Below are positions 32,685 to 61,130 of a stretch of 64,000 nt of DNA, piece by piece; the first letter of the stretch is position 1; every line of letters begins with the position of its first letter. Source of the stretch: a virus (lineage: Duplodnaviria > Heunggongvirae > Uroviricota > Caudoviricetes); IMG/VR virus record IMGVR_UViG_3300029705_000023, positions 109,563 through 173,562 of that record, one strand, 5' to 3'. The notes under the pieces were generated by a model, which saw only the letters and a program-made list of their open reading frames with translations, did not search any database and was not told the origin of the DNA. The position numbers were made by a program, and so were the translations under genes.

Positions 32685-32724
32685 GGTAGCACTGTCGTAC
32701 CTTACTTACTGAATGGAGTTTGAG

Positions 32725-42315: not shown

Positions 42316-42825
42316 ATGCGAGGCGAGATCACGCTCTGGAAGGAAGATCCAGAGGGAAAAATCATATTCTGGAAATCTGAAAATCAGATCCAGGACGGGC
42401 ATACGGCGGTCCTTGCCGCGATGCTGGCTGGTGAGGAAAAAGCCGGGATCAATACGATCTATCTGGAATTTGAGAATACATCCGGAGAAGTCACTCCCGT
42501 AAGTTTCAGCACAGCGGAAGGGGCGGAATACTTCACAGGGTTGACTGGTTCCGCGGATTTTGTGCGAAAGCCTATCGAGATCAAGCCGGTCAGAAATGAC
42601 GATAATTCCGTGACATTCTCGGCGGTCTTCGGCAATGAGACCGGGTTTCACGGACTGCCTTTCGGCGGAACAGGTGTCACGTCCAAAGTCTGCGGCGCGG
42701 CGCTGGTCATGGCGGTTTCAGACGATCAGACGCAGGATATTGTCTTCGCACGAAAGAACTACGATCCTGTAAAAGTAAAGACGACCGAGCAGATGTACAT
42801 CTCGTGGACTATTTATCTGGACTAA
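42316..42825 (+). CDS. Hypothetical tail-fibre-module protein (169 aa)
   Basis: AGGAGG RBS. First gene of the plus-strand fibre block. Confidence 0.45.
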   Translation: MRGEITLWKEDPEGKIIFWKSENQIQDGHTAVLAAMLAGEEKAGINTIYLEFENTSGEVTPVSFSTAEGAEYFTGLTGSADFVRKPIEIKPVRNDDNSVTFSAVFGNETGFHGLPFGGTGVTSKVCGAALVMAVSDDQTQDIVFARKNYDPVKVKTTEQMYISWTIYLD

Positions 42826-44527: not shown

Positions 44528-44623
44528 TACTTTTCATTGAGATCCAAATGAGGGAGGGACAAAAATCAAAAAAGGTTCCTCCCTCAATGCCGTTACACTA
44601 TTAAACCCTGAAAGGTTCTCTAT

Positions 44624-47600
44624 ATGGCATCCTATGCTAACCTTAACTTAAATGACTATGCCGGTCTGACGAAGGAGGACTATGCGCAGATGGCGCTTTC
44701 CGGCACGGATTCCGGTTCAGGTTCCGGTTCTGACACGGGGACCGGTTCCGGAGCGTGTCTCTGGACGGAAGCGCTGATCCAGTCGCTTCAGAGCTCGATC
44801 GCGAACCTTGAAACGAAAATGGATTCGCTTTCTTCGGACGTTGCGGCTTTGAAGACCTATGGCGACACACACTGGAAGACCGCGAACGTTTCTGCTTTGG
44901 CAACTTCTGCGGCTTTGACTTCTGCGAAGGATGTAATTCTCGCAGAGTGTGCAACTGCGGAAGGTTTCGCAACTTCCGAGGAGTTGGAAGCGGCCAAAAG
45001 TACCCTCTACGACAAGCTGGATTCCGACCTGAACAGCATCCGCATCGACTGCAGGACCGCGGAAGGTTTCGCAACTCCGGCGGATGTTACATATGCGAAA
45101 AATGTGATCCTTGAAAGCATTGAAAGCATTCCGGAAACGGATCTTTCCAAAGTCGCGAAGATCGACGACGTGAAAAACCTTGCGAAAGAGTCCACGGTCC
45201 AGACATTGGCGACCTCGGAAGGTCTCACACTTGCGAAGGATGCGATCCTCGCAGGGTGTGCAACGGCCGAAGGTTTCGCGACGCCGGCGGATGTTACATC
45301 TGCGAAGGATGCCATCCTTGCGAACATGAACACTTCGATCGGTTCCGTACCTGCGCAGGTGTGGAACTATGGGAAAGATGAAACCGAGGAACTTTCCACA
45401 GTTCGCGAACTTTCCAGCTTCACCGAGGCGTCTCTTTCGGGACTTGCGACTTCGGAACAGGTTGCAGACCTTGCGAAAGAAGCGACCCTTAACGAAGTTG
45501 CGAAGTTCACAGGAATTGCAAGGTCTACAGAAATTACATCCGCGCGGGATGCGATCCTCAACGAAATGGATACTCTGGCGACTGCGGTAAGTGCCCAGGA
45601 CATTAAAACTGTTTCGGATGAGATCAAGGCGGCGGTTACGAACATTTCCGGAAGTGTGAATACCATTTCAGGTTACACAGATGAACTGGAAGGAATGGTC
45701 GGCGAACTGCGGACTTCCGTCAATGATCTTCCCACCGCGAATAATATTGCTTCCGCAGTGTGGAACTTCGGGAACAGTACAGGTTCCGAAACTTCCACAG
45801 TTCGCGAACTTACGAACTTCCCGATGGTCGACATCTCCGGACTTGCGAAAGTCTCCGACGTTGCCGACCTGGCGACGATGGAATACGTCCAGACATTGGC
45901 AACTTCGGAAGGTCTGACACTCGCGAAGAATGCCATTCTCGAACAGTGCGCAACTGCCGAAGGTTTCGCAGTTCCCGCAGATATTACATCTTCCCAGAAT
46001 GTCATCCTCCAGAAGATCGACAACATCCCGACTGTGGATCTCGACGGGATCGCGAAGACGACGGATCTGAACGATCTGGCGAGAGAGACGACTCTGGAAA
46101 ACGCACAAAGTGCGCTGGCTGCACAACTTACCGAGGTTGGAAAGTTCAACGGAATCGCAAAGGCTGCGGATGTTCAGGCTGCCCAGAATGCTATTGTGGC
46201 GGAATGCGCAACGGCTGCGGGTTTCGCAACTCCGTCAGATGTGACACTTGCGGCAGATGCGCTGCCTGCGAAGGTTTGGAACTATGGGAAAGACGAAACC
46301 GAAGAGCTTTCCGAAATTCGCGAACTTACCAACTTCACCGAATCGTCTCTTTCCCAGCTTGCGAAGTCTTCCGAACTTGACGCACTTGCGAAGGATGCGA
46401 CCGTTGCGAAGGAAGCAACTGTTCAGGAAGTTGCGAAGTTTACGGGAATTGCAACGCTGGAAAGTGTGACACTTGCGAAGGATGCCATTCTCGCGGACTG
46501 CAAAACCGCCGAAGGTTTCGCAACTCCGGCAGACATCACAGCTTCCCGGAATGTCATCGTCGGGAAGATCGAAAGTATTCCGACGGTGGATCTTTCCGAA
46601 CTCGCGAAATCTTCCGAACTTTCAACTCTCGCGAAAGAAGCGACTGTTCAGACATTGGCCACTTCTGCGGCTTTAACTTCTGCGAAAGATGACATTCTTC
46701 TGGAAATTGAAAGCATTCCGGCTGTTGATCTTTCCGAAGTTGCTAAGTCTTCCGAACTTTCAACTCTCGCGAAAGAAGCAACTCTCACCGAAGTCGGCAG
46801 GTTCACCGGATTGGCTACTTCCGAAGGTTTGACCTCTGCCAAAGATGCGATTCTCGCGCAATGTGCGACTGCGGAAGGTTTCGCAGCTCCCGCAGATATT
46901 ACTTCCGCGAAGAATGAAATTCTCACGAAGATTGAAGGCATCCCGACGGTTGATCTTTCCGAAGTTGCGAAATCTGCTGAACTTGAAACTCTCGCCAGGG
47001 AAGCAACGGTTCAGACATTGGCAACTTCCGCAGGTTTGAACTCTGTCCAGAATGCCATCCTCACGGAAATGGAAACTCTGGCGACTGCCGTAACCGCTCA
47101 GGATATTAAAGCTGTTTCGGATGAAATCAAATCGGCCGTAACTTCCATTTCTGGAAATGTTCAAACGATTTCCGGCTACACAGATGAACTGGAAGGAATG
47201 GTCGGCGAACTGCGAACTTCCGTAAGTGATCTTCCTTCGGCGGGTAATATTGCTGAAAAGGTTTGGAACTACGGAAATAATGAAACTTCCGAAACCTCCA
47301 ATGTCCGCGAACTTTCAGCTTTCCCGATGGTTGACATTTCCGGCCTTGCGAAATCTTCCGAACTTGAAACTCTCGCGAAGTCTGCACAGTTTGAAGGGAT
47401 CGCAACACTGGAAAGTGTCACATCTGCGAAGAATGACATTCTCACCGGAATTGAAAGTATCCCGGCTGTTGATCTCTCCGAAGTTGCGAAGTCTGCTGAA
47501 CTTTCAACTCTTGCGAAAGAAGCGACTGTTCAGACATTGGCTACTTCTGAAGGTTTAACTTCTGCGAAGAATGCAATTCTGGAAAGCATTGAAAGTATCC

Positions 47601-50600
47601 CGGCTGTTGATCTCTCCGAAGTTGCGAAGTCTGCTGAACTTTCAACTCTTGCGAAAGAAGCGACTGTTCAGACATTGGCTACTTCTGAAGGTTTGACAGC
47701 TGCCGAAGCCGCCATTCTCGACAGCATTGAAGCCATCCCGACTGTGGATCTTTCAGCCGTTGCGAAATCCTCCGAACTTGAACCTCTTGCGAAAGAAGCA
47801 ACCGTCCAGACATTGGCTACTCCGGCAGATATTACTTCCGCGAAGAATGAAATTCTGGAAAGCATTGAAGCCATTCCGGAAACGGATCTCTCCGAAGTTG
47901 CGAAATCTTCCGAACTTTCAACTCTGGCGAAGGAAGCAACGGTTCAAACATTGGCAACTTCCGAAGGTTTAACTTCTGCAAAGAATGAAATTCTGGAAAG
48001 CATTGAAGCCATTCCGGAAGCTGACCTCTCCGAAATTGCGAAATCCTCTGAACTTTCAACTCTCGCGAAGTCTGCGCAGTTTGAAGGACTGGCTACTCTG
48101 GAAAGTGTGAATTCCGCGAAGAATGAAATTCTCGCAGGAATTGAAAACATTCCGGAAGTCGATCTCTCAGCGGTTGCGAAGTCTTCCGAACTTGAAACTC
48201 TCGCCAAAGAAGCGACTCTCACCGAAGTTGCGAAGTTCACAGGATTGGCTACTTCCGCGAGTTTGAACTCTGTGAAAGATGAACTCATCCAGAAATGCGC
48301 AACTGCCGAAGGTTTCGCAACTCCGCAGGATATTACTTCCGCGAAGAATGCGATTCTGGAAAGCATTGAAGCCATTCCGGAAACGGATCTCTCGCAGGTT
48401 GCGAAATCCGCGGAACTTGAAACTCTGGCGACATTGGCATCTGTCCAGAATGCGAATACTTCGCTGAGTGCGAAACTTGGTGAGATCGAAAAGTTCACCG
48501 GACTGGCAACCTCCGCAGATGTTACGGCTTCCCGGAATGTTATCATTCAGAAAATTGAAAGTATTCCGGAAGCTGATCTTTCCGAAGTCGCGAAATCTTC
48601 CGAACTTGAAACTCTCGCCAAGGAAGCAACTGTCCAGACATTGGCAACTTCCGAAGGTTTGAACTCTGTCCAGAATGTCATCCTCACGGAAATGGAAACT
48701 CTGGCAAGTGCGGTAACCGCTCAGGATATTAAAACTGTTTCGGATGAGATTAAGACAGCTGTTACAAATATCAACTCTTCCGTGGGTGAGATCGCTGAGG
48801 ATGTTGAAACTGTCAAAGGTTACACAGATGAATTGGAATCACTGGTTCAGGGAATTCCAACTTCCGGAAACATTGCGTCCGCGGTCTGGTCGCATACTTC
48901 CAGAGATCTCACACGCTACGAAGTTGCCGATCTTTCCGAAGTTGCTAAATCTTCCGAACTTTCCATTCTCGCCAAGGAAGTAACGGTCCAGACATTGGCT
49001 ACTTCTGAAGGTTTAACTTCCGCGAAGAATGCGATTCTGGAAAGCATTGAAGCCATTCCGGAAACAGATCTTTCGGCAGTTGCGAAATCTGCGGAACTTG
49101 AAACTCTCGCGAAAGAAGCAACTGTTCAGACTCTCGCTGCTTCCGAAGGTTTGAACTCTGCGAAGAGTGAAATTCTCACGAAGATTGAAAGTATCCCAAC
49201 TGTGGATCTTTCGGCAATTGCGAAGTCTTCCGAACTTTCCATTCTCGCCAAAGAAGCAACGGTCCAAACATTGGCTACTTCTGAAGGTTTAACTTCCGTG
49301 AAGAATGAAATTCTCACGAAATGCGCAACTGCCGCAGGTTTCGCAGTTCCGGCAGATATTGATTCTGCGAAGAATGAAATTCTGGAAAGCATTGAAGGTA
49401 TCCCGACTGTCGATCTCTCCGAAGTTGCTAAATCTGCTGAGCTTGAAACTCTCGCCACATTGGAAAGTGTCCAGAATGCGAACACTTCCTTAAGTGCGAA
49501 ACTTGACGAAGTCGGCAGGTTCACAGGGATCGCAACTTCCGCAGATGTTACGGCTTCCCGGAATGTCATCGTTCAGAAAATTGAAAGTATCCCGGAAGCC
49601 GATCTTTCCGAAGTTGCGAAATCCAGCGAACTTTCAACTCTCGCCAGAGTCTCCGACCTGGAAACATTGGCAACGCTGGAAAGTGTCACATCTGCGAAGA
49701 ATGACATTCTCACCGGAATTGAAAGTATCCCGACTGTGGATCTTTCCGAAGTCGCGAAATCTACGGAACTGAACATTCTGGCGAAAGAAGCAACTGTTCA
49801 GACATTGGCAACTTCTGAAAGTCTGGATTCTGTCAAGGATGAACTCATTCAGAAATGCGCAACTGCCGCAGGGTTCGCAACTCCGGCAGATATTACTTCT
49901 GCCCAGAATGTCATCGTTCAGAAGATCGAAAGCATTCCGGAAGCTGATCTCTCCGAAGTCGCCAAGTCTTCCGAACTTTCAACTCTGGCGACATTGGAAG
50001 CTGTCCAGAATGTGAACACTTCACTGGATGCGAAACTCACCGAAGTCGGCAAGTTCACCGGATTGGCTACTTCCGAAGGTTTAACTTCTGCGAAGAATGA
50101 GATTCTCGCGGAAATTGAAAGTATCCCGACTGTGGATCTTTCTGAGGTTGCGAAATCTGCGGAACTTGAACCTCTCGCGAAGAGTGCACAGTTTGAAGGA
50201 TTGGCAACTCTGGAAAGTGTGGATTCCGCGAAAGATTCCATTCTCGATGAAATGGAAACTCTCGCGACAGCTGTTACTGCGCAGGATATTAAAACTGTCT
50301 CGAATGAGATTAAGACAGCCGTTTCGACCATTAATCTTTCGGTGGATTCCATTCTCGCGGATGTTCAAACCATCGAAGGTTACACAGATGAACTGGAAGG
50401 AATGGTCCAGAACCTTCCAACTTCCAAAGGGATCGCGGAAGCGGTTTGGAACTTTGGAAACATGGAAGGTTCGGAAACTTCCAATGTCCGCGAACTTTCA
50501 AACTTCCCGATGGTCGATATTTCAGGACTTGCGAAAGTCTCTGACGTTGAAAACCTCGCGAAAGAAGCAACTGTTCAGACATTGGCGACTTCTGAAAGTT

Positions 50601-53600: not shown

Positions 53601-56600
53601 TCGTCAATTCTGTCTGGAATTATCCTTCCGCGTCTGTCATTTCCGGAACGATGGGATCTTCCGTCACTTCTACACTTTCTCAGGTTGGAACTCTGGCGAC
53701 AAGTGAATCTCTGGCAAATGTGAAATCGGCCGTGGATGCCATTCCGACCGACATTTCCCATCTCGCGAAAGAAGCAACTGTCCAGACATTGGCCACTTCC
53801 GCAGCTTTAACTTCTGCGAAGGATGACATTCTCGCGAAGATCGAAAGTATTCCGGAAACAGATCTCTCGGCAGTTGCGAAATCTGCGGAACTTGAAACTC
53901 TCGCGAAGTCTTCACAGTTTGAAGGATTGGCGACTCTGGAAAGTGTGGATTCTGCCCAGAATGCTATCGTTCAGAAGATCGAAAGCATTCCGGAAACGGA
54001 TCTCTCCGAAGTTGCCAAGTCTTCCGAACTTGAAACTCTCGCGACACTGGAATCTGTCCAGAATGTGAATACTTCGCTGAGTGCGAAACTTGATGAAGTC
54101 GGCAAGTTCACCGGACTGGCTACTTCCGAAGGTTTAACTTCTGCGAAGAATGAAATTCTGGAAAGCATTGAAAGTATTCCGGAAACGGATCTCTCCGAAG
54201 TTGCGAAATCCTCTGAACTTGAAACTCTCGCGAAGTCTTCACAGTTTGAAGGATTGGCAACGCTGGAAAGTGTGGATTCTGCGAAAGATTCCATCATTCA
54301 GAAGATCGAAAGCATTCCGGAAACGGATCTTTCGGCAGTTGCGAAATCTGCGGAACTTGAAACTCTCGCCAGAGTCTCCGATCTGGAAACATTGGCAACG
54401 CTGGAAAGTGTCACATCCGCGAAAGATGAAATTCTCGCAGGAATTGAAGGTATTCCGGAAGCTGATCTTTCCGAAGTTGCGAAGTCTTCCGAACTTTCAA
54501 CTCTGGCGACATTGGAAAGTGTCCAGAATGTGAATACTTCCGTGAATGCGATACCTTCCGAAGTGTGGAATTTCGGCGAAAGCGCAAACGATCGGCAGGT
54601 TTATGCCGCCGGAGTTTCTATCTCCGGAAATGTTTCGATCGACTCGGATGCTATTGCTGAAAAGGTTTGGAATTACGGAAACATGGAAGGTTCCGAAACG
54701 TCTACAGTCCGCGAACTTTCAACTTTCCCGATGGTCGACATCTCCGAACTTGCGAAAGTCTCCGACGTTGAAAACCTCGCAAAAGAAGCAACTGTCCAGA
54801 CATTGGCGACTTCCGCAGCTTTAACTTCCGCGAAAGATGACATTCTCGCGCAATGCAAAACTGCCGCAGGATTTGCGACTCCGGCAGATGTGGAAACGGC
54901 GAAGAATGAAATTCTCGCGGAAATGGAAACTTCCGAAACTTCCATTCTTGGGAAAGTTGAAAAGCTCCCGACATCTTCTACTATCGCGAAAGCGGTATGG
55001 GATGAAAGTTTGACTTCTCACACCCTGACAGGTTCGGCAGGTTCCGCACTTTCCGGAACTGCGACATCTGTCAGTGCTGAAAACATCCAGAGCATGACTT
55101 CCGCGATCCAGACTTCGGTCGCAAAGATCCAGACTTCGGCGAACAACATCGCGGAAGATGTGGATCTTATCGAAGGTTACACCGATGAACTGGAGGGAAT
55201 GGTCCAGAACCTTCCGACTTCCGAAAATATCGCATCTTCTGTCTGGTCTGCATCCAAACGGGAATTGACACGCTACGAAGTTGCCGATGTTTCCAAACTG
55301 GCCACTTCTGAAGGTTTAACTTCTGCGAAGAATGAAATTCTGGAAAGCATTGAAAGTATTCCGGAAACAGATCTCTCGGCCGTTGCGAAATCTTCTGAAC
55401 TTTCAACTCTCGCGACGTTGGAAAGTATTCAGAATGTGAATACTTCCGTAAACGCGATACCTGAAAAAGTGTGGAATTACGGAAATGTTGAAGGTTCTGA
55501 AACTTCCAATGTCCGCGAACTTTCAGCTTTCCCGCTGGTCGACATTTCGGAACTTGCGAAATCTTCGGAACTTGAACCTCTCGCCACTCTGGAATCTGTC
55601 CAGAATGTGAATACTTCGCTGAGTGCGAAACTTGATGAAGTCGGCAAGTTCACAGGAATTGCAACTTCGGAAGAGTTGAACTCTGCGCAGAGTTCCATTC
55701 TCACGAAGATCGAAGCCATCCCAACTGCGGATCTCTCGACAGTTGCGAAATCTTCCGAGCTTTCAACTCTCGCGAAAGAAGCAACTGTTCAGACATTGGC
55801 TACTTCCGAAGGTTTAACTTCCGCGAAGAATGAAATCCTCACAGGAATTGAAAACATTCCAGAAACGGATCTTTCAGCGATTGCTAAATCTTCTGAACTT
55901 GAAACTCTGGCAAAGAGTGCACAGTTTGAAGGATTGGCAACGCTGGAAAGTGTCAACACTGCGAAGAATGAAATTCTCGCCGGAATCGAAAGTATCCCGA
56001 CTGTGGATCTCTCGGCAGTTGCTAAGTCTTCGGAACTTTCAACTCTCGCCAAAGAAGCAACTCTCAACAAAGTCGGCAAGTTCACAGGATTGGCTACTTC
56101 CGAAGGTTTGAACTCTGTGAAAGATGAAATCCTCACAGAAATTGAAAGCATTCCGGCTGTTGATCTCTCCGAAGTTGCTAAATCTTCCGAACTTGAAACT
56201 CTCGCGAAAGAAGCAACTCTCACCGAAGTCGGCAAGTTCACCGGATTGGCTACTTCCGAAGGTTTGAACTCTGCTAAGAGTGAAATTCTCGCGGAAATTG
56301 GAAGTATCCCGACTGTCGATCTTTCCGAAGTTGCGAAATCTTCCGAACTTGAACCTCTCGCGACATTGGAAAGTGTCCAGAGTGTGAAAGATGCCGTGGA
56401 TGGAACTCCTGCCAAAGTATGGAATTACGGAGGAAACTACACTTACCGAACAGTTCAGGCTGACGGAGTGACCATCGAAGGCGAAGTTTCAGCCAATGTC
56501 AATAACGCGGAAATTGCCAAAGAAGTTTGGAATTATGGAAACGAATCCGGAACTGTTTCAGGACTTCGCGAACTTTCAAACTTCCCGCTGGTCGATATTT

Positions 56601-59600
56601 CAGGACTTGCGAAATCTTCGGAACTTGAAACTCTCGCCAGAGTCTCTGATCTGGAAGGATTGGCCACTTCCGCAGCTTTAACTTCCGCGAAGAATGAAAT
56701 TCTGGAAGGAATTGAAAGCATTCCGGAAACGGATCTCTCCGAAGTTGCGAAATCCGCGGAACTTTCGACTCTCGCCAAGGTTTCCGACCTGGAAACATTG
56801 GCAACTCTGGAAAGTGTCACATCCGCGAAAGATGCCATTCTCACCGGAATTGAAAGCATTCCGGAAACAGATCTCTCGCAGGTTGCGAAGTCTTCCGAAC
56901 TTTCAATTCTCGCAAAAGAAGCAACGGTCCAGACATTGGCCACTTCCGCAGCTTTAACTTCTGCGAAGGATGACATTCTTGCGGAAATTGAAAGTATCCC
57001 GACTGTGGATCTTTCCGAAGTTGCGAAATCTGCGGAACTTTCAACTCTCGCGAAAGTTTCTGATCTGGAAACTTTGGCAACTCTGGAAAGTGTTGATTCT
57101 GCCCAGAGTTCCATTCTCGCGAAGATCGAAAGTATTCCGACTGTGGATCTTTCCGAAGTTGCGAAATCTGCGGAACTTTCAACTCTGGCGAAAGAGGAAA
57201 CTCTCACCGAAGTCGGCAAGTTCACCGGATTGGCAACTTCTGAAAATGTCACTTCCGCGCAGAATGCCATTCTCAACAAGTTGAACTCCTCGCTGAATGT
57301 GGATCTCTCAACAGTTGCGAAGAAGACCGACCTTGCGGCTCTGGCGAAAGAGGAAACTCTCGGAACATTGGCAACTCCGGCAGATATTACTTCCGCGCAG
57401 AATGCCATCGTCCAGAAGATCAACAGTATCCCGACTGTCGATCTCTCGGCAGTTGCGAAATCCGCGGAACTTGAAACTCTCGCGAAAGTTTCCGACCTGG
57501 AAGGATTGGCAACTCTGGCAAGTGTCGATTCCGCGAAGAATGAAATTCTCACGGAAATGGAAAACATCCCGACTGTGGATATTTCCGGACTCGCTACTTC
57601 CGCGCAGGTCGAGAATATCGCGAAGGTCTCCGATCTGGCCGGGTTGGCGACTTCCGAAGGTGTGGAAACTGCCGTGAATGCGGTACCTGAAAAGGTGTGG
57701 AACTATGGCGAGGATTACACTTCCCGAAGTGTGAAAGCCAACGGCGTTTCACTCGAAAGTTCGGAACTTACTGTGAATATTGACTCTGCCGAAATTGCAA
57801 ACCGCGTCTGGTCGAATACTTCCAGAACATTGACTTCCGGCGAGAATATCGACCTCTCCGGATTGGCGACCTCCGAAGGTGTGGAAGCTGCGAAGGATGC
57901 CATTCTCGCAGAGTGCAAAACGGCCGAAGGTTTCGCTACTCCGGCGGATGTGAAAGCCTCCGAAAATGCCATCCTTTCCGAAATGGAAACGCTGGCAACC
58001 GCGGTATCCGCCCAGGACATCAAAACCATTTCGGATGAAATCAAGTCGGCCGTTACGAACATCTCCGAAAGTGTGCATACCATCGAAGGCTACACAGATG
58101 AGCTGGAATCGCTTGTTCAGGGAGTTCCCACTTCCGGAAACATTGCATCAGCCGTCTGGTCGCACACTTCCAGAGATCTCACACGCTACGAAGTTGCGGA
58201 TCTCTCCGAAGTTGCGAAGAAGGGCGACCTTGCAGATCTCGCGAAAGTCTCCGACCTTGCGGACGTTGCGAAGTCTGCGGACCTTGAAAACGTCGCGAAA
58301 GTCACCGACCTTGCAGACCTTGCGAAGGTTTCCGACCTTGCAGACCTTGCGAAGGTTTCCAACCTTGCGGACCTTGCGACCTCCGAAGGTCTCACACTTG
58401 CGAAGGATGCCATTCTTGCAGGGTGTAAAACTGCCGAAGGTTTCGCGACGCCGGCGGATGTGGAACTTGCCGTCGATGCCATTCCTGAAAAGGTGTGGAA
58501 CTTCGGCGAGAATTCCAACTCGCGAACTGTGAAAGCCGAAGGCGTTTCGCTCGAAACTTCAGAACTTACGGTCGAAGTCGATTCCGCGAAGATCGCACAG
58601 GCTGTCTGGTCGAATACTTCCAGAACCTTGACTTCCAGCGAAAATATCGATTTCCCGGAATTCAACACCTCGGATCTTGCGAAAGTCACTGACCTTGAAG
58701 ACCTTGCGAAGGTCTCCGATCTGACGGGCATTGCGACCTCTGCGGATGTGGAAGCTGCGAAGGATGCCATTCTCGCGAAGTGTGAAACTCCGGAAGGTCT
58801 CGCAACCGCTGCGGATGTGGAATCTGCGAAGGATGAAATTCTCGCAGGGTGCAAGACTGCGGAAGGTTTCGCAACCGCTGCGGATGTGAAAGCCTCCGAG
58901 GAAGTCATCCTCGCGAAGCTGAACACTTCGCTCGATGTCGATCTCTCCGACGTCGCGAAGAAGGACGACCTTACCGACCTCGCGAAGAAGGAAGACCTCG
59001 CCGGATTGGCGACCTCCGAAAGTGTGAATGCTGCGCAGAATGCCATCCTTCAGAAGATCGACGATCTGCCGAAGCAGGAAACCTCCGGAGATGGGGAAGG
59101 GACGGTAACTGTCGATCCTGCCGAGATCGCAAACGCTGTCTGGTCGCACACCTCCCGAGAATTAACATCCTACCCGGATGTCAGCCTCGACGGAGTTGCG
59201 AAGTCCGCGGAACTTGCCGACCTCGCGAAGGTTTCCGATCTGGCAGAGATCGCGACCGTCCGGGATGTTCAGCTTGCAAGAGATACGATCCTTGGTAAAC
59301 TGGATACTTCCCTGAATGTCGATACTTCCGAACTTGTGAAACGTTCCGATCTGGAAAACCTCGCGGCAGGAAGAACTCTCGCGGATCTCGCAACGCCGAA
59401 GGATGTGAATATCCAGGTAAATGCGGATGGTCTGAACGTTCCAAACGCCGAGGAAGTCGCAGACGCAGTCTGGAATGCAGAGTCCAGAACGCTGACAGAT
59501 CTGGAAGGTATCGACCTCTCCGGACTGGCGAAGTCAGAAGAACTTGAAAAGCTGGCGAAGGAGTCCACCCTCCAGAGCCTGAGACAGCTCCTGCGTTCGC

Positions 59601-59659
59601 TTCCTCCTGAAAAACGAACCGTTCCAGGTGTGAATATCTCGCAGAGTTTGAAACGTTAG
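44624..59659 (+). CDS. Giant hyper-repetitive fibre/adhesin-like protein (5011 aa, 15,036 nt)
   Basis: Single uninterrupted ORF. About 46-aa, 138-nt modules (DLSEVAKSSELSTLAKEATVQTLATSEGLTSAKNEILESIESIPET) are repeated about 80 times. Longer VWNYG...ETS.VRELS.FPMVDISGLAK and TAVTAQDIKTVSDEIK...YTDELEGMV modules recur every 300-700 aa. The N-terminal 40 aa are shared with the downstream 368-aa paralog. Confidence 0.8.
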   Translation: MASYANLNLNDYAGLTKEDYAQMALSGTDSGSGSGSDTGTGSGACLWTEALIQSLQSSIANLETKMDSLSSDVAALKTYGDTHWKTANVSALATSAALTSAKDVILAECATAEGFATSEELEAAKSTLYDKLDSDLNSIRIDCRTAEGFATPADVTYAKNVILESIESIPETDLSKVAKIDDVKNLAKESTVQTLATSEGLTLAKDAILAGCATAEGFATPADVTSAKDAILANMNTSIGSVPAQVWNYGKDETEELSTVRELSSFTEASLSGLATSEQVADLAKEATLNEVAKFTGIARSTEITSARDAILNEMDTLATAVSAQDIKTVSDEIKAAVTNISGSVNTISGYTDELEGMVGELRTSVNDLPTANNIASAVWNFGNSTGSETSTVRELTNFPMVDISGLAKVSDVADLATMEYVQTLATSEGLTLAKNAILEQCATAEGFAVPADITSSQNVILQKIDNIPTVDLDGIAKTTDLNDLARETTLENAQSALAAQLTEVGKFNGIAKAADVQAAQNAIVAECATAAGFATPSDVTLAADALPAKVWNYGKDETEELSEIRELTNFTESSLSQLAKSSELDALAKDATVAKEATVQEVAKFTGIATLESVTLAKDAILADCKTAEGFATPADITASRNVIVGKIESIPTVDLSELAKSSELSTLAKEATVQTLATSAALTSAKDDILLEIESIPAVDLSEVAKSSELSTLAKEATLTEVGRFTGLATSEGLTSAKDAILAQCATAEGFAAPADITSAKNEILTKIEGIPTVDLSEVAKSAELETLAREATVQTLATSAGLNSVQNAILTEMETLATAVTAQDIKAVSDEIKSAVTSISGNVQTISGYTDELEGMVGELRTSVSDLPSAGNIAEKVWNYGNNETSETSNVRELSAFPMVDISGLAKSSELETLAKSAQFEGIATLESVTSAKNDILTGIESIPAVDLSEVAKSAELSTLAKEATVQTLATSEGLTSAKNAILESIESIPAVDLSEVAKSAELSTLAKEATVQTLATSEGLTAAEAAILDSIEAIPTVDLSAVAKSSELEPLAKEATVQTLATPADITSAKNEILESIEAIPETDLSEVAKSSELSTLAKEATVQTLATSEGLTSAKNEILESIEAIPEADLSEIAKSSELSTLAKSAQFEGLATLESVNSAKNEILAGIENIPEVDLSAVAKSSELETLAKEATLTEVAKFTGLATSASLNSVKDELIQKCATAEGFATPQDITSAKNAILESIEAIPETDLSQVAKSAELETLATLASVQNANTSLSAKLGEIEKFTGLATSADVTASRNVIIQKIESIPEADLSEVAKSSELETLAKEATVQTLATSEGLNSVQNVILTEMETLASAVTAQDIKTVSDEIKTAVTNINSSVGEIAEDVETVKGYTDELESLVQGIPTSGNIASAVWSHTSRDLTRYEVADLSEVAKSSELSILAKEVTVQTLATSEGLTSAKNAILESIEAIPETDLSAVAKSAELETLAKEATVQTLAASEGLNSAKSEILTKIESIPTVDLSAIAKSSELSILAKEATVQTLATSEGLTSVKNEILTKCATAAGFAVPADIDSAKNEILESIEGIPTVDLSEVAKSAELETLATLESVQNANTSLSAKLDEVGRFTGIATSADVTASRNVIVQKIESIPEADLSEVAKSSELSTLARVSDLETLATLESVTSAKNDILTGIESIPTVDLSEVAKSTELNILAKEATVQTLATSESLDSVKDELIQKCATAAGFATPADITSAQNVIVQKIESIPEADLSEVAKSSELSTLATLEAVQNVNTSLDAKLTEVGKFTGLATSEGLTSAKNEILAEIESIPTVDLSEVAKSAELEPLAKSAQFEGLATLESVDSAKDSILDEMETLATAVTAQDIKTVSNEIKTAVSTINLSVDSILADVQTIEGYTDELEGMVQNLPTSKGIAEAVWNFGNMEGSETSNVRELSNFPMVDISGLAKVSDVENLAKEATVQTLATSESLNSAKNEILESIESIPEADLSEVAKSSELEPLAKEATLNEVGRFAGLATSAELNSVKDTVINNIESIPTVDLSEVAKSSELEPLAKEATLTEVGRFTGLATSENVTSAQNAILAEISNLPDIETVQGWNSELDEKLSEISKFTGLATSANVEAAQSVILAGIESIPETDLSQVAKSSELSTLATLESVQNVNSKLNVIPAEVWNYGNAEGSETSNVRELSTFPMVDISELAKSSELEPLAKEATLNEAAKFTGLATSANVEAAQSAILAGIESIPEADLSEVAKSSELEPLAKSAQFANMATLESVESAKNAILEQCATAEGFATPADITSAKNEILTGIEAIPETDLSAVAKSAELEPLATLESVQNVNTSLSAKLGEIEKFTGLATSADVTSAKDAVLAGIQTSENALSSELEPLAKEVTLANVNTSVTSIPSEVWNFGGSHAYRTVQTDGIQIEGNISASVDNAAIAKEVWSYTSRSLNSLKVSASSSIASSAELETLATGTGLEDVKLLVSKIPTTVLTAADIAPLATLESVEGMATSEGLTSVKNEILTKCKTAEGFAVPADIDSAKNEILTKIEGIPTVDLSEVAKSSELEPLAKEATVQTLATSEGLNSVQNVISAKIESIPETDLSAVAKSAELETLATLESVRNVNSRLDTIPAEVWNYGNMEGSETSTVRELSSFPMVDISELAKSSELEPLAKSAQFEGIATLASVDSAKDEILAGIESIPEADLSEVAKSAELSTLAKEATVQTLATSEGLNAAQNAIVQKIESIPTVDLSEVAKSAELELLAKEATVQTLATSEGLTSAKNAILESIESIPEADLSEVAKSSELEPLAKEATVQTLATSEGLTSAKNEILAGIESIPETDLSEVAKSAELETLATLESVQNVNTSLSAKLNEVGKFTGLATSEGLTSAKNEILESIESIPETDLSEVAKSSELSTLAKEATLANVNTSVSAIPAEVWNFGGSYTYRTVQADGVKIEGEVSASVDVAEIVNSVWNYPSASVISGTMGSSVTSTLSQVGTLATSESLANVKSAVDAIPTDISHLAKEATVQTLATSAALTSAKDDILAKIESIPETDLSAVAKSAELETLAKSSQFEGLATLESVDSAQNAIVQKIESIPETDLSEVAKSSELETLATLESVQNVNTSLSAKLDEVGKFTGLATSEGLTSAKNEILESIESIPETDLSEVAKSSELETLAKSSQFEGLATLESVDSAKDSIIQKIESIPETDLSAVAKSAELETLARVSDLETLATLESVTSAKDEILAGIEGIPEADLSEVAKSSELSTLATLESVQNVNTSVNAIPSEVWNFGESANDRQVYAAGVSISGNVSIDSDAIAEKVWNYGNMEGSETSTVRELSTFPMVDISELAKVSDVENLAKEATVQTLATSAALTSAKDDILAQCKTAAGFATPADVETAKNEILAEMETSETSILGKVEKLPTSSTIAKAVWDESLTSHTLTGSAGSALSGTATSVSAENIQSMTSAIQTSVAKIQTSANNIAEDVDLIEGYTDELEGMVQNLPTSENIASSVWSASKRELTRYEVADVSKLATSEGLTSAKNEILESIESIPETDLSAVAKSSELSTLATLESIQNVNTSVNAIPEKVWNYGNVEGSETSNVRELSAFPLVDISELAKSSELEPLATLESVQNVNTSLSAKLDEVGKFTGIATSEELNSAQSSILTKIEAIPTADLSTVAKSSELSTLAKEATVQTLATSEGLTSAKNEILTGIENIPETDLSAIAKSSELETLAKSAQFEGLATLESVNTAKNEILAGIESIPTVDLSAVAKSSELSTLAKEATLNKVGKFTGLATSEGLNSVKDEILTEIESIPAVDLSEVAKSSELETLAKEATLTEVGKFTGLATSEGLNSAKSEILAEIGSIPTVDLSEVAKSSELEPLATLESVQSVKDAVDGTPAKVWNYGGNYTYRTVQADGVTIEGEVSANVNNAEIAKEVWNYGNESGTVSGLRELSNFPLVDISGLAKSSELETLARVSDLEGLATSAALTSAKNEILEGIESIPETDLSEVAKSAELSTLAKVSDLETLATLESVTSAKDAILTGIESIPETDLSQVAKSSELSILAKEATVQTLATSAALTSAKDDILAEIESIPTVDLSEVAKSAELSTLAKVSDLETLATLESVDSAQSSILAKIESIPTVDLSEVAKSAELSTLAKEETLTEVGKFTGLATSENVTSAQNAILNKLNSSLNVDLSTVAKKTDLAALAKEETLGTLATPADITSAQNAIVQKINSIPTVDLSAVAKSAELETLAKVSDLEGLATLASVDSAKNEILTEMENIPTVDISGLATSAQVENIAKVSDLAGLATSEGVETAVNAVPEKVWNYGEDYTSRSVKANGVSLESSELTVNIDSAEIANRVWSNTSRTLTSGENIDLSGLATSEGVEAAKDAILAECKTAEGFATPADVKASENAILSEMETLATAVSAQDIKTISDEIKSAVTNISESVHTIEGYTDELESLVQGVPTSGNIASAVWSHTSRDLTRYEVADLSEVAKKGDLADLAKVSDLADVAKSADLENVAKVTDLADLAKVSDLADLAKVSNLADLATSEGLTLAKDAILAGCKTAEGFATPADVELAVDAIPEKVWNFGENSNSRTVKAEGVSLETSELTVEVDSAKIAQAVWSNTSRTLTSSENIDFPEFNTSDLAKVTDLEDLAKVSDLTGIATSADVEAAKDAILAKCETPEGLATAADVESAKDEILAGCKTAEGFATAADVKASEEVILAKLNTSLDVDLSDVAKKDDLTDLAKKEDLAGLATSESVNAAQNAILQKIDDLPKQETSGDGEGTVTVDPAEIANAVWSHTSRELTSYPDVSLDGVAKSAELADLAKVSDLAEIATVRDVQLARDTILGKLDTSLNVDTSELVKRSDLENLAAGRTLADLATPKDVNIQVNADGLNVPNAEEVADAVWNAESRTLTDLEGIDLSGLAKSEELEKLAKESTLQSLRQLLRSLPPEKRTVPGVNISQSLKR
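47452..47727 (+). repeat. Example of near-identical 138-nt tandem units inside the giant gene (two consecutive copies); similar units occur throughout 45.1-57.6 kb
   Basis: atcccggctgttgatctctccgaagttgcgaagtctgctgaactttcaactcttgcgaaagaagcgactgttcagacattggctacttctgaaggttt occurs twice verbatim. Confidence 0.85.
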
Positions 59660-59673
59660 AAGAATACGAAACC

Positions 59674-59698
59674 GGGGAGCCTTCGGGCTCCCTTTTTC
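59674..59698 (+). terminator. Rho-independent terminator after the giant gene
   Basis: GGGGAGCC-ttcg-GGCTCCC-TTTTTC. Confidence 0.65.
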
Positions 59699-59713
59699 AT
59701 AAGGAGTAACTTT

Positions 59714-60820
59714 ATGGCAACTTACGCAGATCTCGGACTTGAACAGTTCGCGCAGCTTTCAGTCGATGATTTTGTGAACCTTGAATTGAATGAGAGTTCC
59801 GCAGGAACCTGCATCTGGTCGAATACGCTGATCTCCGCGCTTCAAAACGCGATCGGAACCCTTGAAACTAAGATCGATCTGCTTGCCGACGCGATGGTCG
59901 TACTTCAAACCAATCTGCAGACGCATGGAGATTCAAACTGGAAAACAGCGGAAGGTTTTCTGACTTCCTCACCCTCTGCAAATGACATTGCCTCGGAAGT
60001 GTGGAATTACGGAGAAGACTATACTTCACGAACTGTAAAAGCCAACGGAGTTTCTTTGGAAAGCACGGAACTCTCGGTGAATATCGATTCCGCAGAAATC
60101 GCGAACCGTGTCTGGTCGAACACTTCCAGAACTTTGACTTCCGGCGAGAATATCAACTTCCCGGAATTCAACACCTCGGATCTTGCGAAAGCCGAACAGG
60201 TCGAAAACGTCGCGAAAGTTTCCGATCTGGCAGACCTTGCGAAGTCCGCGGAGCTTGCCGACCTTGCGAAGGTCTCCGATCTGTCCGGACTAGCGACTTC
60301 CGCAGGTGTGGAAGCTGCCGCAGATGCTGTACCTGAGAAGGTGTGGAATTACGGCGAAGACTACACCTCCCGAAGTGTGAAAGCGAACGGCGTTTCGCTG
60401 GAAAGTTCCGAACTTACTGTAAACATCGACTCCGCAGAGATCGCAAACCGTGTCTGGTCGAACACATCCAGAACTTTGACTTCCGGCGAGAATATCGATT
60501 TCCCGGAATTCAACACCTCGGATCTCGCGAAGTCTGCCGACCTTGAAGACCTTGCGAAAGTTTCTGACCTTGCAGACCTTGCGAAGTCTGCGGATATTGT
60601 GCAGGTTCAGGAGGATGTTATTAATATCCAAAACACAATGGCAGACGTGTTCCCAAAGATCCTGAATTCCCAACAGCTTCAGGTCGGACTCCTTGGGCAC
60701 TGGAAAGTCGAGGAAGATGTTCTTGTCATTTTCGATGAGAATGGAGACAAAATTTCAGAGATCCTATTGACAAAAGATAAAAAAGGAAATATCATTCAAA
60801 TGGGTTCAACACAGGAGTAA
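59714..60820 (+). CDS. Short paralog of the giant protein (368 aa) with the same N-terminal domain and VWNYGEDYTSR.VKANGVSLES modules
   Basis: AAGGAG RBS. N-terminus MATYADLGLEQFAQLSVDDF compares with MASYANLNLNDYAGLTKEDY. Two internal module copies match the C-terminal modules of the giant protein. Confidence 0.7.
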   Translation: MATYADLGLEQFAQLSVDDFVNLELNESSAGTCIWSNTLISALQNAIGTLETKIDLLADAMVVLQTNLQTHGDSNWKTAEGFLTSSPSANDIASEVWNYGEDYTSRTVKANGVSLESTELSVNIDSAEIANRVWSNTSRTLTSGENINFPEFNTSDLAKAEQVENVAKVSDLADLAKSAELADLAKVSDLSGLATSAGVEAAADAVPEKVWNYGEDYTSRSVKANGVSLESSELTVNIDSAEIANRVWSNTSRTLTSGENIDFPEFNTSDLAKSADLEDLAKVSDLADLAKSADIVQVQEDVINIQNTMADVFPKILNSQQLQVGLLGHWKVEEDVLVIFDENGDKISEILLTKDKKGNIIQMGSTQE

Positions 60821-60904
60821 CCAATGCAAACCCCTTTCACCGCTCACCGCCGCTGGCTTCCAAGCCATGTAAAACCAGTCTTCATCTGGCTTTACAAGCG
60901 GCTC

Positions 60905-61130
60905 CGATACGGAAAGTAACCCAACCCCAAAAGTAACGACCGCAATCCGGAAAGACTCGTAAAATACGGGACGAAATGAAGTTTATACTTTCTATTCCTG
61001 AAGATAATGAGTAGATGCCATTGTGTCTCGTTGCGTAAAAAAGGGACTCTAAGCAAATGAGCAACGGCGTGAAAATGGTCATTTCAAGCCGTTGCAAGGC
61101 AAGGTAACACCTAAAATAACGACTACAATT
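60905..61130. promoter_or_regulatory. Candidate attP / integrase arm-site region: repeated AARGTAAC(G/A)(A/C)C motifs, including AAAGTAACGACCGCAAT (60930-60946) and AAAATAACGACTACAAT (61114-61130)
   Basis: Direct and near-direct repeats in the 300-nt non-coding gap next to the integrase 3' end. Confidence 0.3.

Follow-up and report, generated by a model that had tools for sequence, protein, structure and literature searches.

The described systems closest to the locus analyzed here are fibers or filaments of phage necks and heads. T4 fibritin (Wac), the protein of the collar and whiskers, is a segmented α-helical fiber encoded beside neck and head-completion genes. Its N-terminal domain is followed by a helical rod and a small β domain (the foldon) at the C-terminus, and it plays an accessory role in modulating adsorption. 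Phage phiCbK gp76, a 2,799-aa protein expanded by tandem duplication and encoded near head genes, is a candidate for the flexible ~200-nm head filament proposed to make the first contact with the host; gp76 was not detected in virions (PMC3556154). The phi29 gp8.5 protein is a homotrimeric accessory fiber having a stem that forms a repeating helix-turn-helix supercoil rather than a canonical coiled coil (PMC6542822).

The DNA analyzed here is a 64-kb stretch (the window, which contains no Ns) from an uncultivated gut or rumen phage of at least ~187 kb. The phage is contractile-tailed; a baseplate-J wedge protein, a tail sheath, and a DUF2345/VgrG-like protein are encoded within the window and mark it as phage DNA. 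The distant kin of the sheath are those of 180–187 kb myoviruses, and large terminase, portal, and adaptor genes are present across the same contig family. Short related contigs binned in one Kiritimatiellae MAG and one Planctomycetaceae MAG give a weak indication of the host. Two ORFs of the baseplate cluster, at 16343-20431 (1,362 aa) and 14237-15898 (553 aa), are without assignment. Elsewhere in the window a cluster of genes read from one strand encodes, in order, proteins of 169, 265, 253 (GT25-like), 5,011, and 368 aa. Our favored reading, drawn from sequence comparisons and held with modest confidence, is that the 5,011-aa and 368-aa proteins (below, the giant and small proteins) are virion fibers of this large contractile-tailed phage and belong to a family based at the head-tail junction.

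The giant gene (44624..59659, + strand) is an uninterrupted ORF of 15,036 nt that occupies 23.5% of the window, confirming the roughly one quarter given in a preliminary description of this DNA. Its product consists of an N-terminal domain (type A) and ~67 modules delimited by DLSxxAK, carries 26 VW motifs, and ends in a unique basic tail. The modules of ~46 aa (138 nt) reported in that description were borne out: residue autocorrelation is maximal at lag 46 (0.246; background, 0.088) and has a lesser peak at lag 23, and TRF found 138-nt arrays in the gene. The motif D[LI]SxxAK bounds 67 units, 27 of which are exactly 46 aa long, whereas the others (52, 57, 63, 69, and 75 aa) are 46-aa units with inserted sub-modules. 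The 46-aa repeat is in turn assembled from 9-aa sub-units. The longer punctuation modules had been said to recur about 20 times, which was not confirmed: 16 of the 26 VW motifs read VWN[YF]G, and AQDIK...YTDELE occurs only five to six times. The hydrophobicity spectrum of the giant body has a single sharp peak at 2.875 residues (46/16, power 13.9) and essentially no power at 3.5, 3.6, or 3.667 residues (0.10 at 3.667). The body is neither heptad nor hendecad and lacks coiled-coil periodicity. The hendecad-like pattern suggested earlier is not supported, and we do not place the giant among hendecad (11/3) coiled-coil fibers, since the expected period of ~3.67 residues is absent. Nor was it confirmed that some units are verbatim tandem copies, as had been thought. 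The 46-aa units show 56–90% nucleotide identity (mean 71%) and a mean amino acid identity of 66%, indicating that they are old and maintained rather than recent copies. Exact repeats reach at most 107 nt (47450 versus 47588), the next longest being 66 nt. As defined by TRF, the most homogeneous 138-nt tandem array (47423..48217, + strand, 5.8 copies) contains the 107-nt repeat, and a 27-nt array encoding the 9-aa sequence DLADLAKVS lies at 58225..58379 (+ strand).

The giant protein is rich in Ala (13.8%), Ser (12.3%), Glu (11.1%), Leu (10.9%), and Thr (9.9%), and each of its modules ends in an invariant Ile-Pro. Searches of Pfam gave no family above cut-off and no globular domain, and the PDB contained no sequence relative. 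Direct reading of the N-terminus gave no signal peptide, and there was no Pfam anchor or secretion domain. A PHROG lacking an annotated function, phrog_30808, matches the W-module and 9-mer region of the giant as well as the small protein, P0007, and P0014 (P numbers denote relatives described below). The giant body is predicted, with low confidence, to be all-α. AF2 monomer models were poor (pLDDT 48 and 50) and all-helical except for a few short strands in the W-modules and C-terminal domain of the small protein. They lacked a tertiary fold, as expected if the protein is an obligate oligomer. The 9-aa repeats were rendered as 7-residue helices with breaks between them, again with low confidence.

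In the product of the small gene (59714..60820, + strand), a type A N-terminus is joined to two double-W modules and 9-aa repeats, with a "type 2" domain (~40 aa) at the C-terminus. It had been described as a paralog sharing the N-terminus and modules of the giant, and BLASTP confirmed both relationships: the N-termini are homologous across ~85 aa (E=3e-18) and the small protein W-modules match the C-terminal region of the giant (E=5e-63). The type A domain (giant aa 1-87; 44624..44884, + strand) was delimited by this BLASTP comparison and by aligning six members of the family (the giant, the small protein, a 213-aa paralog, P0002, P0007, and P0018), in which M1, Y4, L7, L15, L25, C45, W47, and L69 are invariant. 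It begins with MAxYAxLxLxxYAxL, followed by a variable Gly/Ser linker, the invariant C-x-W, and a ~30-residue hydrophobic stretch of 3-4-3-4 (heptad) spacing, read from the sequence as L55-I59-L62-M66-L69-V73-L76. Heptad spacing is confined to these ~30 residues. In the small protein, AF2 places a helix at aa 37-76 (pLDDT 69-75) and C-terminal strands at aa 330-365 (pLDDT ~70). The type 2 domain is conserved in seven family members; the giant lacks it, and the last ~50 aa of the giant align with neither the type 2 domain nor the adaptor domain discussed below.

The two double-W modules of the small gene are an internal duplication (~255 nt, 84% identity). A double-W module of the giant (aa 4353-4410, AVPEKVWNYGEDYTSRSVKANGVSLESSELTVNIDSAEIANRVWSNTSRTLTSGENID; 57680..57853, + strand) is identical to aa 205-262 of the small protein at 58 of 58 residues, although the nucleotide sequences differ at 23 of 174 positions (13%), every one a third codon position. 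This indicates strong purifying selection on the module. Both the W-modules (VWxYG... and IAxxVWxxxxRxLT) and the 9-aa DLxxLAKxx repeats are common to the family. By pattern match only, a consensus scan placed a terminator-like hairpin (GGGGAGCC-TTCG-GGCTCCCT, then a T-run; 59674..59693, + strand) between the giant and small genes, the latter of which is served by an AAGGAG ribosome-binding site of its own. The 213-aa paralog, which has a type A N-terminus and a type 2 C-terminus, is encoded in the head module of copies of the phage that lack an integrase island present in the window. There it occupies the position of the fiber gene in relatives and lies downstream of genes for a 265-aa protein paralog and a GT25-like paralog. 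This third paralog was absent from the preliminary description.

The first gene of the cluster (42316..42825, + strand) is a 169-aa ORF that is predicted as a gene in all related contigs and had no match in Pfam and PHROG searches. The 265-aa protein (42905..43702, + strand) is an orphan and a conserved upstream partner of the fiber genes. Its features are a motif conserved at the N-terminus, TLIxE(N/D)GSDPTGSGGxIINxNFKKID, a Tyr/Ser/Gly-rich stretch, and a C-terminal domain. The head module of the phage encodes a 271-aa paralog (37% identity, E=6e-36), and a 224-aa homolog is encoded two genes upstream of P0018, a fiber-adaptor fusion (E=4e-26). The reading of this protein as having a tail-fiber N-terminus found no backing in Pfam, PHROG, or the PDB, and its only seven homologs are all unnamed. 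The 253-aa protein (43766..44527, + strand), likewise a conserved partner and encoded directly upstream of the fiber genes, is plausibly a GT25-like candidate glycosyltransferase. The protein itself, which had already been called GT25-like, has no direct Pfam match, and the label is carried by a homolog, L029_229 (29% identity, E=6e-26), which matches PF01755 (Glyco_transf_25) at E=1.3e-5 and has a faint precomputed match as well. When the family profile was compared with the PDB only procollagen galactosyltransferase 1 (COLGALT1) was returned, at a nonsignificant E=0.35. An alignment inspected for an acidic DxD-like motif gave E72, E78, and D80 as invariant acidic residues. A paralog is encoded in the head module (52% identity) and a homolog directly upstream of P0018 (50% identity).

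HMMER, run exhaustively over 1.84 billion proteins, recovered ~20 true relatives, all of 150–830 aa. A tblastn comparison with 50,697 phage records produced no matches. The giant belongs to a small, previously uncharacterized family, and appears to be a 6- to 30-fold internal expansion of an ordinary 150–830 aa member encoded beside the adaptor or fused to it. The relatives are located in Mu-like head modules adjoining the head-tail adaptor gene. In the smaller relatives the gene order is TerL, portal, ..., 265-like, GT25-like, fiber, adaptor, MuF, and major capsid protein. In several relatives the adaptor domain (PF07030, phrog_195) is part of the same protein: P0022, P0007, P0008, and P0018 have fiber modules plus a C-terminal Mu Gp36/PF07030 domain. 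P0022 scores 32.8 bits against PF07030 (cut-off 24.7), P0007 matches phrog_195 at E=1.6e-5, and a separate adaptor, L028_158, does so at E=2e-13. We defined the family by a type A or type B N-terminus (the type A N-terminus swaps with the unrelated type B domain among relatives), by W, GFATPxDV, or 9-aa modules, and by a type 2 or adaptor C-terminus. Both the giant and the small protein have the type A N-terminus, W-modules, and 9-aa repeats, and their genes belong next to the adaptor gene in the head module, downstream of 265-like and GT25-like genes. The small protein has one of the defining C-termini and the giant does not. Neither matches PF07030 or phrog_195; such matches are found only in relatives and in the neighboring gene described next. 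The shared N-terminus had been termed an anchor, a view opposed by P0007, P0008, P0018, and P0022, in which this domain lies at the end opposite the adaptor domain. If this fusion layout is taken literally, the N-terminal domain would be the distal end of the fiber.

In copies of the phage without the island, the small gene and the adaptor gene are convergent immediate neighbors. The gene at this site in L017 encodes 165 aa and matches phrog_195 "head-tail adaptor" at E=2.4e-5 and PF07030 weakly; we call it a putative adaptor mainly from the former match. Comparison with island-free contigs showed that the window retains only the displaced 3′ end of this gene next to the small gene (60882..61002, − strand, ~40 codons). 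The window is identical to L016, L017, and L018 through 61002 and diverges from 61003, the junction of an integrase island that sits between the small gene and the remainder of the adaptor gene. Its tyrosine integrase (61123..62259, − strand; PF00589 and phrog_1) is outside the fiber locus. As the island is an insertion missing from other copies of the phage, the adjacency of an integrase to the fiber genes is secondary.

Given a repetitive 15-kb gene, we weighed whether the ORF could be a chimeric or collapsed repeat assembly, as might be read from a 100-N gap inside the gene in a related scaffold (L001), from several contigs that end within the gene, and from a contig (L024) having 10 Ns and a split gene call. 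This we consider barely credible. The same 15,036 nt, 100% identical end to end, were found in two other metagenome assemblies, from independent samples and assemblers (JGI and ENA/MEGAHIT k141). Three further assemblies are 100% identical over a readable 11.1 kb (the 3′ two-thirds of the giant gene plus the small gene), and 5,011-aa gene calls were made in five samples. The frame is open across 15 kb in every complete copy, and the two longest exact repeats are below k=141. We conclude that the giant gene is real and its assembly reproducible. The variants differ only by exact in-frame units of 138, 27, and 12 nt. Giant alleles of 5015, 5011, 4965, and 4956 aa were found, together with small protein alleles of 368, 359, 319, and 273 aa in one 90% cluster and of 254, 292, and 406 aa in more distant strains. 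The indels (138, 27, 27, and 12 nt) all lie within tandem arrays: a one-unit deletion (138 nt, 46 aa) in the 47423..48217 array of two assemblies, ERZ27248306 and ERZ27248351; a 27-nt one-unit deletion at gene interval 13464-13729 (the 58225..58379 array) in ERZ27248306; a 12-nt GSGS expansion at 44731, in the N-terminal domain, in one assembly; and a 27-nt indel near 60559 in the small gene. Length variation does occur, as had been predicted, but the allele that is identical across several samples argues against strong instability.

Three other readings accept the gene as real. Capsid-surface head fibers, or a single head filament of the phi29 gp8.5 or phiCbK type, would be bound to the capsid rather than to the adaptor ring. 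Location in or beside the head morphogenesis module fits this reading, as do the precedent of phiCbK gp76 (PMC3556154), the trimeric phi29 head fibers with their unusual helix-turn-helix stem (PMC6542822), and the low-confidence short helices of the 9-aa repeats. We nevertheless think it unlikely, since the adaptor-domain fusions of several relatives point to the neck rather than the shell and neither gp8.5 nor any PDB chain is similar in sequence. A somewhat smaller chance attaches to the proposal that the giant and small proteins are classical tail fibers or receptor-binding proteins of the baseplate, forming an exchangeable long/short pair. They are fibrous and modular with a common N-terminus, end-swapping is typical of tail fibers, and the window contains a baseplate and sheath cluster. 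That cluster, however, is ~18 kb from the fiber locus with accessory and defense genes between them, and in every relative examined the gene is inside the head module by the adaptor or is fused to it. No tail-fiber, collar, or spike family of Pfam or PHROG was matched, so that we rejected membership in a classical tail fiber or tailspike family, and the 1,362-aa and 553-aa ORFs of the baseplate cluster would be more conventional tail-fiber candidates. The earlier judgment that this is not a classical fiber is upheld insofar as the synteny of the family points to the head-tail adaptor rather than the baseplate. Finally, we regard it as quite improbable that the giant is a non-virion protein, whether a moron that supplies the cell surface with an adhesin or a matrix protein, a scaffold, or a protein that is internal or ejected. 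Accessory genes and the integrase island flank the locus, the 213-aa paralog weakly matches PHROG "scaffolding" (E=0.0015), and P0013, a weak match that carries only 9-aa repeats and is one of the 13 homologs of the small protein, contains hydrophobic segments resembling membrane spans. Against this stand the lack of a signal peptide and of anchor or secretion domains noted above, relatives that are fused to a structural adaptor domain within head modules, and the secondary nature of the integrase adjacency.

Returning to fibers of the head-tail junction, we picture the giant as a very long, probably oligomeric, and possibly glycosylated fiber near the head-tail joint. The shared N-terminal domain, which includes a short heptad segment, would nucleate the oligomer, probably a trimer. 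The ~67 short modules, tentatively α-helical and closed by Ile-Pro, would give a segmented, flexible filament with a likely length of 0.35–0.75 µm; note that both oligomeric state and filament shape are guesses. The W-modules that punctuate the filament, being under purifying selection, would be the likeliest interaction sites. Fusions and synteny suggest that the fiber is borne at or near the adaptor ring and that the 213-aa and 368-aa paralogs form short fibers at equivalent sites. The conserved GT25-like enzyme may glycosylate the Ser/Thr-rich fibers, its putative substrates. By analogy with T4 whiskers, phi29 head fibers, and the phiCbK head filament, the fiber could provide long-range reversible capture of host cells or of a polysaccharide/mucus matrix before tail engagement. 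The observed polymorphism in length by whole units would arise where arrays are most uniform, through slippage or unequal recombination.

Among known systems, trimeric autotransporter adhesins resemble the giant in being long modular fibers shuffled from a small lexicon of short modules. They differ in having a YadA-type membrane anchor and a signal peptide, and the giant is set in a phage head module. Membership was rejected as there was no anchor domain match and HiaBD2/GIN (PF15403) was matched only in relatives and below threshold (P0023, 21.7 bits versus a cut-off of 25; a precomputed match in P0015). The Mu Gp36/DUF1320 adaptor (PF07030, phrog_195) is linked to the family as the C-terminal domain of fiber relatives and through the adaptor gene that abuts the small gene. 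The giant and small proteins lack the domain and are its partners or neighbors rather than members. The short helices and breaks of the 9-aa repeats recall phi29 gp8.5, although the AF2 models are too poor for structural comparison; gp8.5 is a 280-aa protein that binds the capsid shell, and no PDB chain matched the giant or small protein. The giant, known here from its sequence, shares with phiCbK gp76 its very large size, tandem expansion, and head-gene neighborhood, with no homology detected by tblastn in the 50,697 phage records. Whereas gp76 is Gly/Ala/Pro-rich and predicted to be coil plus β with a ConA-like lectin domain, the giant is Ala/Ser/Glu/Leu/Thr-rich, predicted to be helical, and has no lectin domain. 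T4 fibritin has no sequence or Pfam relation to the giant or small protein, and we rejected fibritin membership because there is no fibritin Pfam match and heptads occur only in ~30 N-terminal residues. The giant is also ~10 times longer than fibritin and lacks both heptad periodicity in its body (no 3.5-residue power) and a C-terminal β domain. The small paralog, however, has the fibritin layout of an N-terminal domain, a helical rod, and a predicted foldon-sized C-terminal β domain, and the accessory, adsorption-modulating role of fibritin is the model for the function proposed for the giant.

The giant gene is a single open frame of 5,011 codons at 44624-59659 on the forward strand, in a window that contains no Ns, and a 368-codon open reading frame lies 3' of it at 59714-60820 (+). 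The giant protein is rich in Ala (13.8%), Ser (12.3%), Glu (11.1%), Leu (10.9%), and Thr (9.9%). Its residue autocorrelation was highest at lag 46 (0.246 versus a background of 0.088), with a secondary peak at lag 23 and a ripple at lags 3, 6, and 9. Tandem Repeats Finder reported 138-nt arrays with 72–84% matches in the giant gene plus 27-nt arrays toward its 3' end and within the small gene. Division of the protein at each D[LI]SxxAK motif delimited 67 units, 27 of which are exactly 46 aa long; the consensus of the 46-aa unit is DLSEVAKSSELETLAKEATVQTLATSESLTSAKNEILAGIESIPEV. The remaining units (52, 57, 63, 69, and 75 aa) consist of the basic unit and a few inserted sub-modules, TLTEVGKFTGLA, CATAEGFATPADITSAKNEIL, TLESVQNVNTSLSAKL, and VWNYGNxEGSETSxVRELSxFPMV. 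As the units are of one 46-aa type plus inserted sub-modules, the protein is built from a small lexicon of short words, mostly of 9 aa. The preliminary description, which had the longer modules recurring about 20 times, overstated the counts: VWN[YF]G occurs 16 times, all VW motifs together 26 times, and the AQDIK...YTDELE module only five to six times.

That description also called the residue pattern hendecad-like and some of the nucleotide units verbatim copies, and neither statement was borne out. The hydrophobicity spectrum consists of one very sharp peak at 2.875 residues (46/16), with essentially no power at 3.5, 3.6, or 3.667, and the body of the protein follows neither a heptad nor a hendecad pattern. 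Exact internal repeats reach at most 107 nt, in adjacent units at 47450 and 47588, and the second longest is 66 nt. Pairs of 46-aa units have a mean nucleotide identity of 71% (range 56–90%) and a mean amino acid identity of 66%. Repeats of 9 and 46 aa with a period of 2.875 match no standard coiled coil and could represent a new fibre fold.

In exact-protein look-ups, over 20 contigs of JGI, ENA, and Logan assemblies carried the neighbouring genes, and the complete giant gene was rebuilt from overlapping loci for four contigs. All 15,036 nt were 100% identical to the window in JGI 3300023371 and 3300022661, the gene of JGI 3300022601 was 12 nt longer, and that of ENA ERZ27248306 lacked one 138-nt unit and one 27-nt unit. 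Three further assemblies gave 100% identity across the 11.1 kb retrieved. With the full gene identical in two contigs and 11.1 kb identical in three more, the open reading frame is real and the assembly is reproducible. The 138-nt deletion, seen again in a second assembly, affects the array of greatest uniformity (47423-48217). The extra 12 nt, at 44731, expand the N-terminal Gly/Ser linker by GSGS. The expected length variation exists as single-unit changes at the most uniform arrays, but strong recombinational instability is not supported, since the main allele stays stable from sample to sample. One 27-nt unit near 60559 is missing from the small gene of another contig. Small-protein alleles of 368, 359, 319, and 273 aa occur in one 90% cluster, and those of more distant strains (254, 292, and 406 aa) differ by whole W-modules, the repeat modules that contain VW. 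In a strain about 90% identical (contig L001) the giant gene differs in module content over its 3' third, and its 3' part appears ~800 aa longer; the length of that gene was not relied on, because a 100-N gap lies inside it on that scaffold.

The kinship proposed for the giant and small proteins holds at both levels. Their first ~85 residues are homologous (E=3e-18), and both double-W modules of the small protein match the C-terminal region of the giant. The common N-terminal domain, which we call type A, runs from MAxYAxLxLxxYAxL through a variable Gly/Ser linker and an invariant C-x-W to a helix with hydrophobic residues in 3-4-3-4 spacing, where AF2 confidence was best (pLDDT 69–75). A 58-aa stretch is identical in the two proteins despite differences at 23 of 174 nucleotides, all in third codon positions, which indicates strong purifying selection rather than recent copying. 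The last ~40 aa of the small protein (WxVSGxxL...TLTKDxxGNI) form a domain that is common to seven family members and is predicted to be a small beta sheet (AF2, pLDDT about 70), whereas the giant ends in a basic tail. Between these genes lies a terminator-like hairpin (59674-59693); a separate ribosome-binding site, AAGGAG, belongs to the small gene.

AF2 monomer models of the small protein (17-sequence alignment, pLDDT 47.7) and of six 46-aa modules (internal-repeat alignment, pLDDT 50.1) were poor, almost wholly helical, and devoid of tertiary packing; the few short strands were confined to the W-modules and C-terminal domain of the small protein. One 16-residue helix (LTSAKNEILESIESI), ended by an invariant Pro, was consistently predicted per 46-aa unit, and the 9-aa repeats (DLxxLAKxx-like) were rendered as 7-residue helices separated by breaks. 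Absence of packing in these monomers would be expected of a chain that folds only as an oligomer, although it is no proof. A Foldseek search of the PDB with the poor small-protein model gave no match at E≤0.001.

Word-indexed searches returned 13 proteins for the small protein and six for residues 1-1000 of the giant. An exhaustive phmmer search of 1.84 billion representatives with giant residues 1-1200 gave 31 matches at E≤1e-3, only six of them at E≤1e-10; the long matches, such as P0019 (an LRR/ROC/TIR protein), were rejected as artefacts of composition and leucine repeats. The true relatives are three-part mosaics of 150–830 aa. Their N-terminus is type A or an unrelated beta-rich domain (type B), their middle contains a few W, GFATPxDV, LTTTTxxVxV, or 9-aa modules, and their C-terminus is either the beta domain that also ends the small protein (type 2) or a Mu Gp36/PF07030 head-tail adaptor domain, with all four combinations of N- and C-terminal types present. 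The adaptor domain was confirmed in the relatives P0022 (32.8 bits, cut-off 24.7) and P0007 (phrog_195, E=1.6e-5). Growth by repeats has been extreme in this family, which spans ~150 to 5,011 aa and in which natural alleles differ by exactly one unit. No relatives of 1,000–5,000 aa were found in a collection that lacks the giant itself and so may not cover relatives above ~5,000 aa. The 5,011-aa protein is called on many contigs yet is absent from both large protein collections searched, apparently through its length. Proteins above ~5,000 aa appear to be missing from these collections, and such genes may be systematically overlooked.

Other searches defined how isolated the family is. Megablast found no counterpart of the locus among INPHARED phages or E. 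coli genomes, tblastn of the small protein and giant residues 1-3000 against 50,697 phage records gave no match, and a scan of IMG/VR with the small protein found no relative. GTDB genomes yielded only two tiny contigs of one Planctomycetaceae MAG. PDB sequence searches with the N-terminal 1,200 aa of the giant, the small protein, the 265-aa protein family, and the type B domain gave nothing significant. The locus defines a family without a Pfam or PDB relative, and gene fusions would place that family at the head-tail adaptor.

The genes of the relatives sit in Mu-like head modules with the order large terminase, portal, several small genes, a 224-aa gene, a 229/235-aa gene, the fibre gene, MuF, and major capsid protein, the fibre gene either forming a fusion with the adaptor or preceding it by a few genes. 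The 224-aa product resembles the 265-aa protein encoded at 42905-43702 (+) and the 229/235-aa product the 253-aa protein encoded at 43766-44527 (+), both upstream of the giant gene. The present phage has a second such cassette in its own head module, outside the window. On the reverse strand of the related contig L017 it comprises genes for a 271-aa protein (37% identical to the 265-aa protein) and a 250-aa protein (52% identical to the 253-aa protein) at 12914-14513, together with a third fibre paralog of 213 aa at 12273-12914, which has a type A N-terminus and a type 2 C-terminus. Genes of 58 and 131 aa follow, and then the adaptor. Given this head-module copy, the 265-253-5011-368 cluster of the window represents a duplication of the cassette, with one of its fibre genes enormously expanded.

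The 265-aa protein, which the preliminary description labeled a tail-fibre N-terminus, had no match in Pfam, PHROG, or the PDB, and the label lacks database support. Its seven homologs are all unnamed, although its conservation as a partner of the fibre genes is clear. The 253-aa protein, described as GT25-like, had no direct Pfam match. Its homolog directly upstream of the gene for P0008, a fibre relative, matches Glyco_transf_25 (E=1.3e-5), and the only PDB match of the family profile, procollagen galactosyltransferase 1, was non-significant (E=0.35). The assignment is plausible but transitive, since it comes through the homolog. The conserved GT25-like partner and a Ser+Thr content of 22% suggest that the giant fibre may be glycosylated, a testable link. 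The GT25-like gene and the giant gene are 96 nt apart, and this spacer contains a 9-bp perfect inverted repeat at 44549-44586 (TGAGGGAGG ... CCTCCCTCA) with a 20-nt A-rich loop, a putative signal that could act in transcript processing or attenuation.

Past the small gene the contigs fall into two arrangements. In L016, L017, and L018 the small gene converges on a gene for a 165-aa head-tail adaptor (phrog_195, E=2.4e-5; PF07030 weak), beyond which lies the rest of the head module, including the large terminase gene (E=7e-25) and a weak candidate portal gene (phrog_113, E=6.5e-4). The window and most other contigs are identical to these through 61002 and then continue with an integrase gene (61123-62259), an HTH_17 protein gene, and further genes. 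Within the 60882-64000 segment of the window, the junction at 61002/61003 falls in the adaptor gene, ~40 codons from its 3' end. This switch point indicates that an integrase-bearing island was inserted and that the fibre locus originally adjoined the adaptor gene. The integrase could instead have marked a prophage end with the fibre genes as cargo; that explanation was rejected, because in the island-free copies the small gene and the adaptor gene are direct neighbours. A tRNA scan found no tRNA gene and hence no tRNA attachment site in the window. The same phage occurs in copies without the island (L016-L018) and with it (L019-L026 and L001-L007). Island genes in related contigs encode a tyrosine integrase, the HTH_17 protein, a 664-aa open reading frame, a D12 methyltransferase, and a 639-aa protein with an RNA_pol_Rpb1_5 match.

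The window also encodes a baseplate-J wedge protein (3263-4786), a sheath-like protein of 998 aa (9183-12179, +), a sigma-factor-like protein (13503-14258), and a DUF2345/VgrG-like protein (21791-24427). Among deposited phages the relatives of the sheath are only 180–187 kb myoviruses (Vibrio phages D181, D148, and D69 and Salmonella phage Arash), at 26–28% identity. The sheath-like protein is unusually long, and its resemblance to known sheaths is limited to the C-terminal 40%; the N-terminal 570 aa gave no match. The longest contig with the fibre locus measures 187,654 bp; those of related strains extend to 189,372 bp. A complete Septu system lies next to the baseplate genes (PtuA, E=3.8e-138, 1383-2657, +; PtuB, E=1.4e-64, 2627-3268, +; PADLOC). 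More defence-type genes occupy the accessory region that separates the tail genes from the fibre locus; the two at 32713-33939 (+) and 29011-30321 (-) encode an ATPase that hits the PDC-M56A candidate system (E=3e-122) and an EcoRII-C type II restriction endonuclease (Pfam, E=4e-69). All related contigs retain, immediately before the fibre cluster and on the other strand (40495-41520), the gene for a 341-aa protein with an N-terminal winged-helix/HTH region, a HATPase_c (histidine-kinase-type ATPase) domain, and a C-terminal STAS-like DUF4325.

Both the fusions and the synteny link the fibre proteins to the head-tail adaptor. The reading with the best support would make the three paralogs accessory fibres at or near the neck, the 5,011-aa protein being an extreme, filamentous version. 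We infer that the giant is not a tape-measure protein, since its gene is not in the module expected for one and a ruler of 5,011 aa would mean a tail of ~750 nm. Taken at face value, the adaptor fusions would make the C-terminus the end at the adaptor and the type A domain the distal end. This contradicts the earlier view of the shared N-terminus as an anchor, but the giant has neither of the two known C-terminal domains. As a fibrous phage appendage protein the giant is of a known kind; we infer its virion location, oligomeric state, fold, glycosylation, and host. The adaptor-linked family was previously undescribed, the size of the giant is unprecedented within it, and its unit-indel polymorphism is natural; the locus is more interesting in this family context than as a stand-alone repeat.

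The fullest version of the neck-fibre reading is one we hold only tentatively and think on balance unlikely to be right in every part. The phage would carry neck fibres of three lengths (213, 368, and 5,011 aa) with one shared N-terminal domain, the longest a filament of about half a micrometre, helical without being a coiled coil (period 2.875), lacking structural precedent, glycosylated by a dedicated GT25-like enzyme, and tuned in length in nature by whole-module slippage. If true, it would be the longest neck-tied phage appendage protein, and both its fibre fold and its module lexicon would be new.

The candidate phiCbK filament protein gp76 has 2,799 aa for about 200 nm (PMC3556154). Scaled by this ratio, the giant filament would be very roughly 0.36 μm long, and a continuous alpha-helix at 0.15 nm per residue would give roughly 0.75 μm. 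Scaling by the T4 fibritin ratio would give roughly 0.55 μm. Accessory fibres (whiskers, head fibres, and head filaments) govern host finding in viscous, polysaccharide-rich habitats such as the gut and rumen. To our knowledge few families of such fibres have been described, and almost none from uncultivated phages of PVC-group bacteria. The likely function of the present fibres would be long-range, reversible capture of host cells or matrix, the same function that has been proposed for the T4 whiskers, the phi29 head fibres, and the phiCbK filament.
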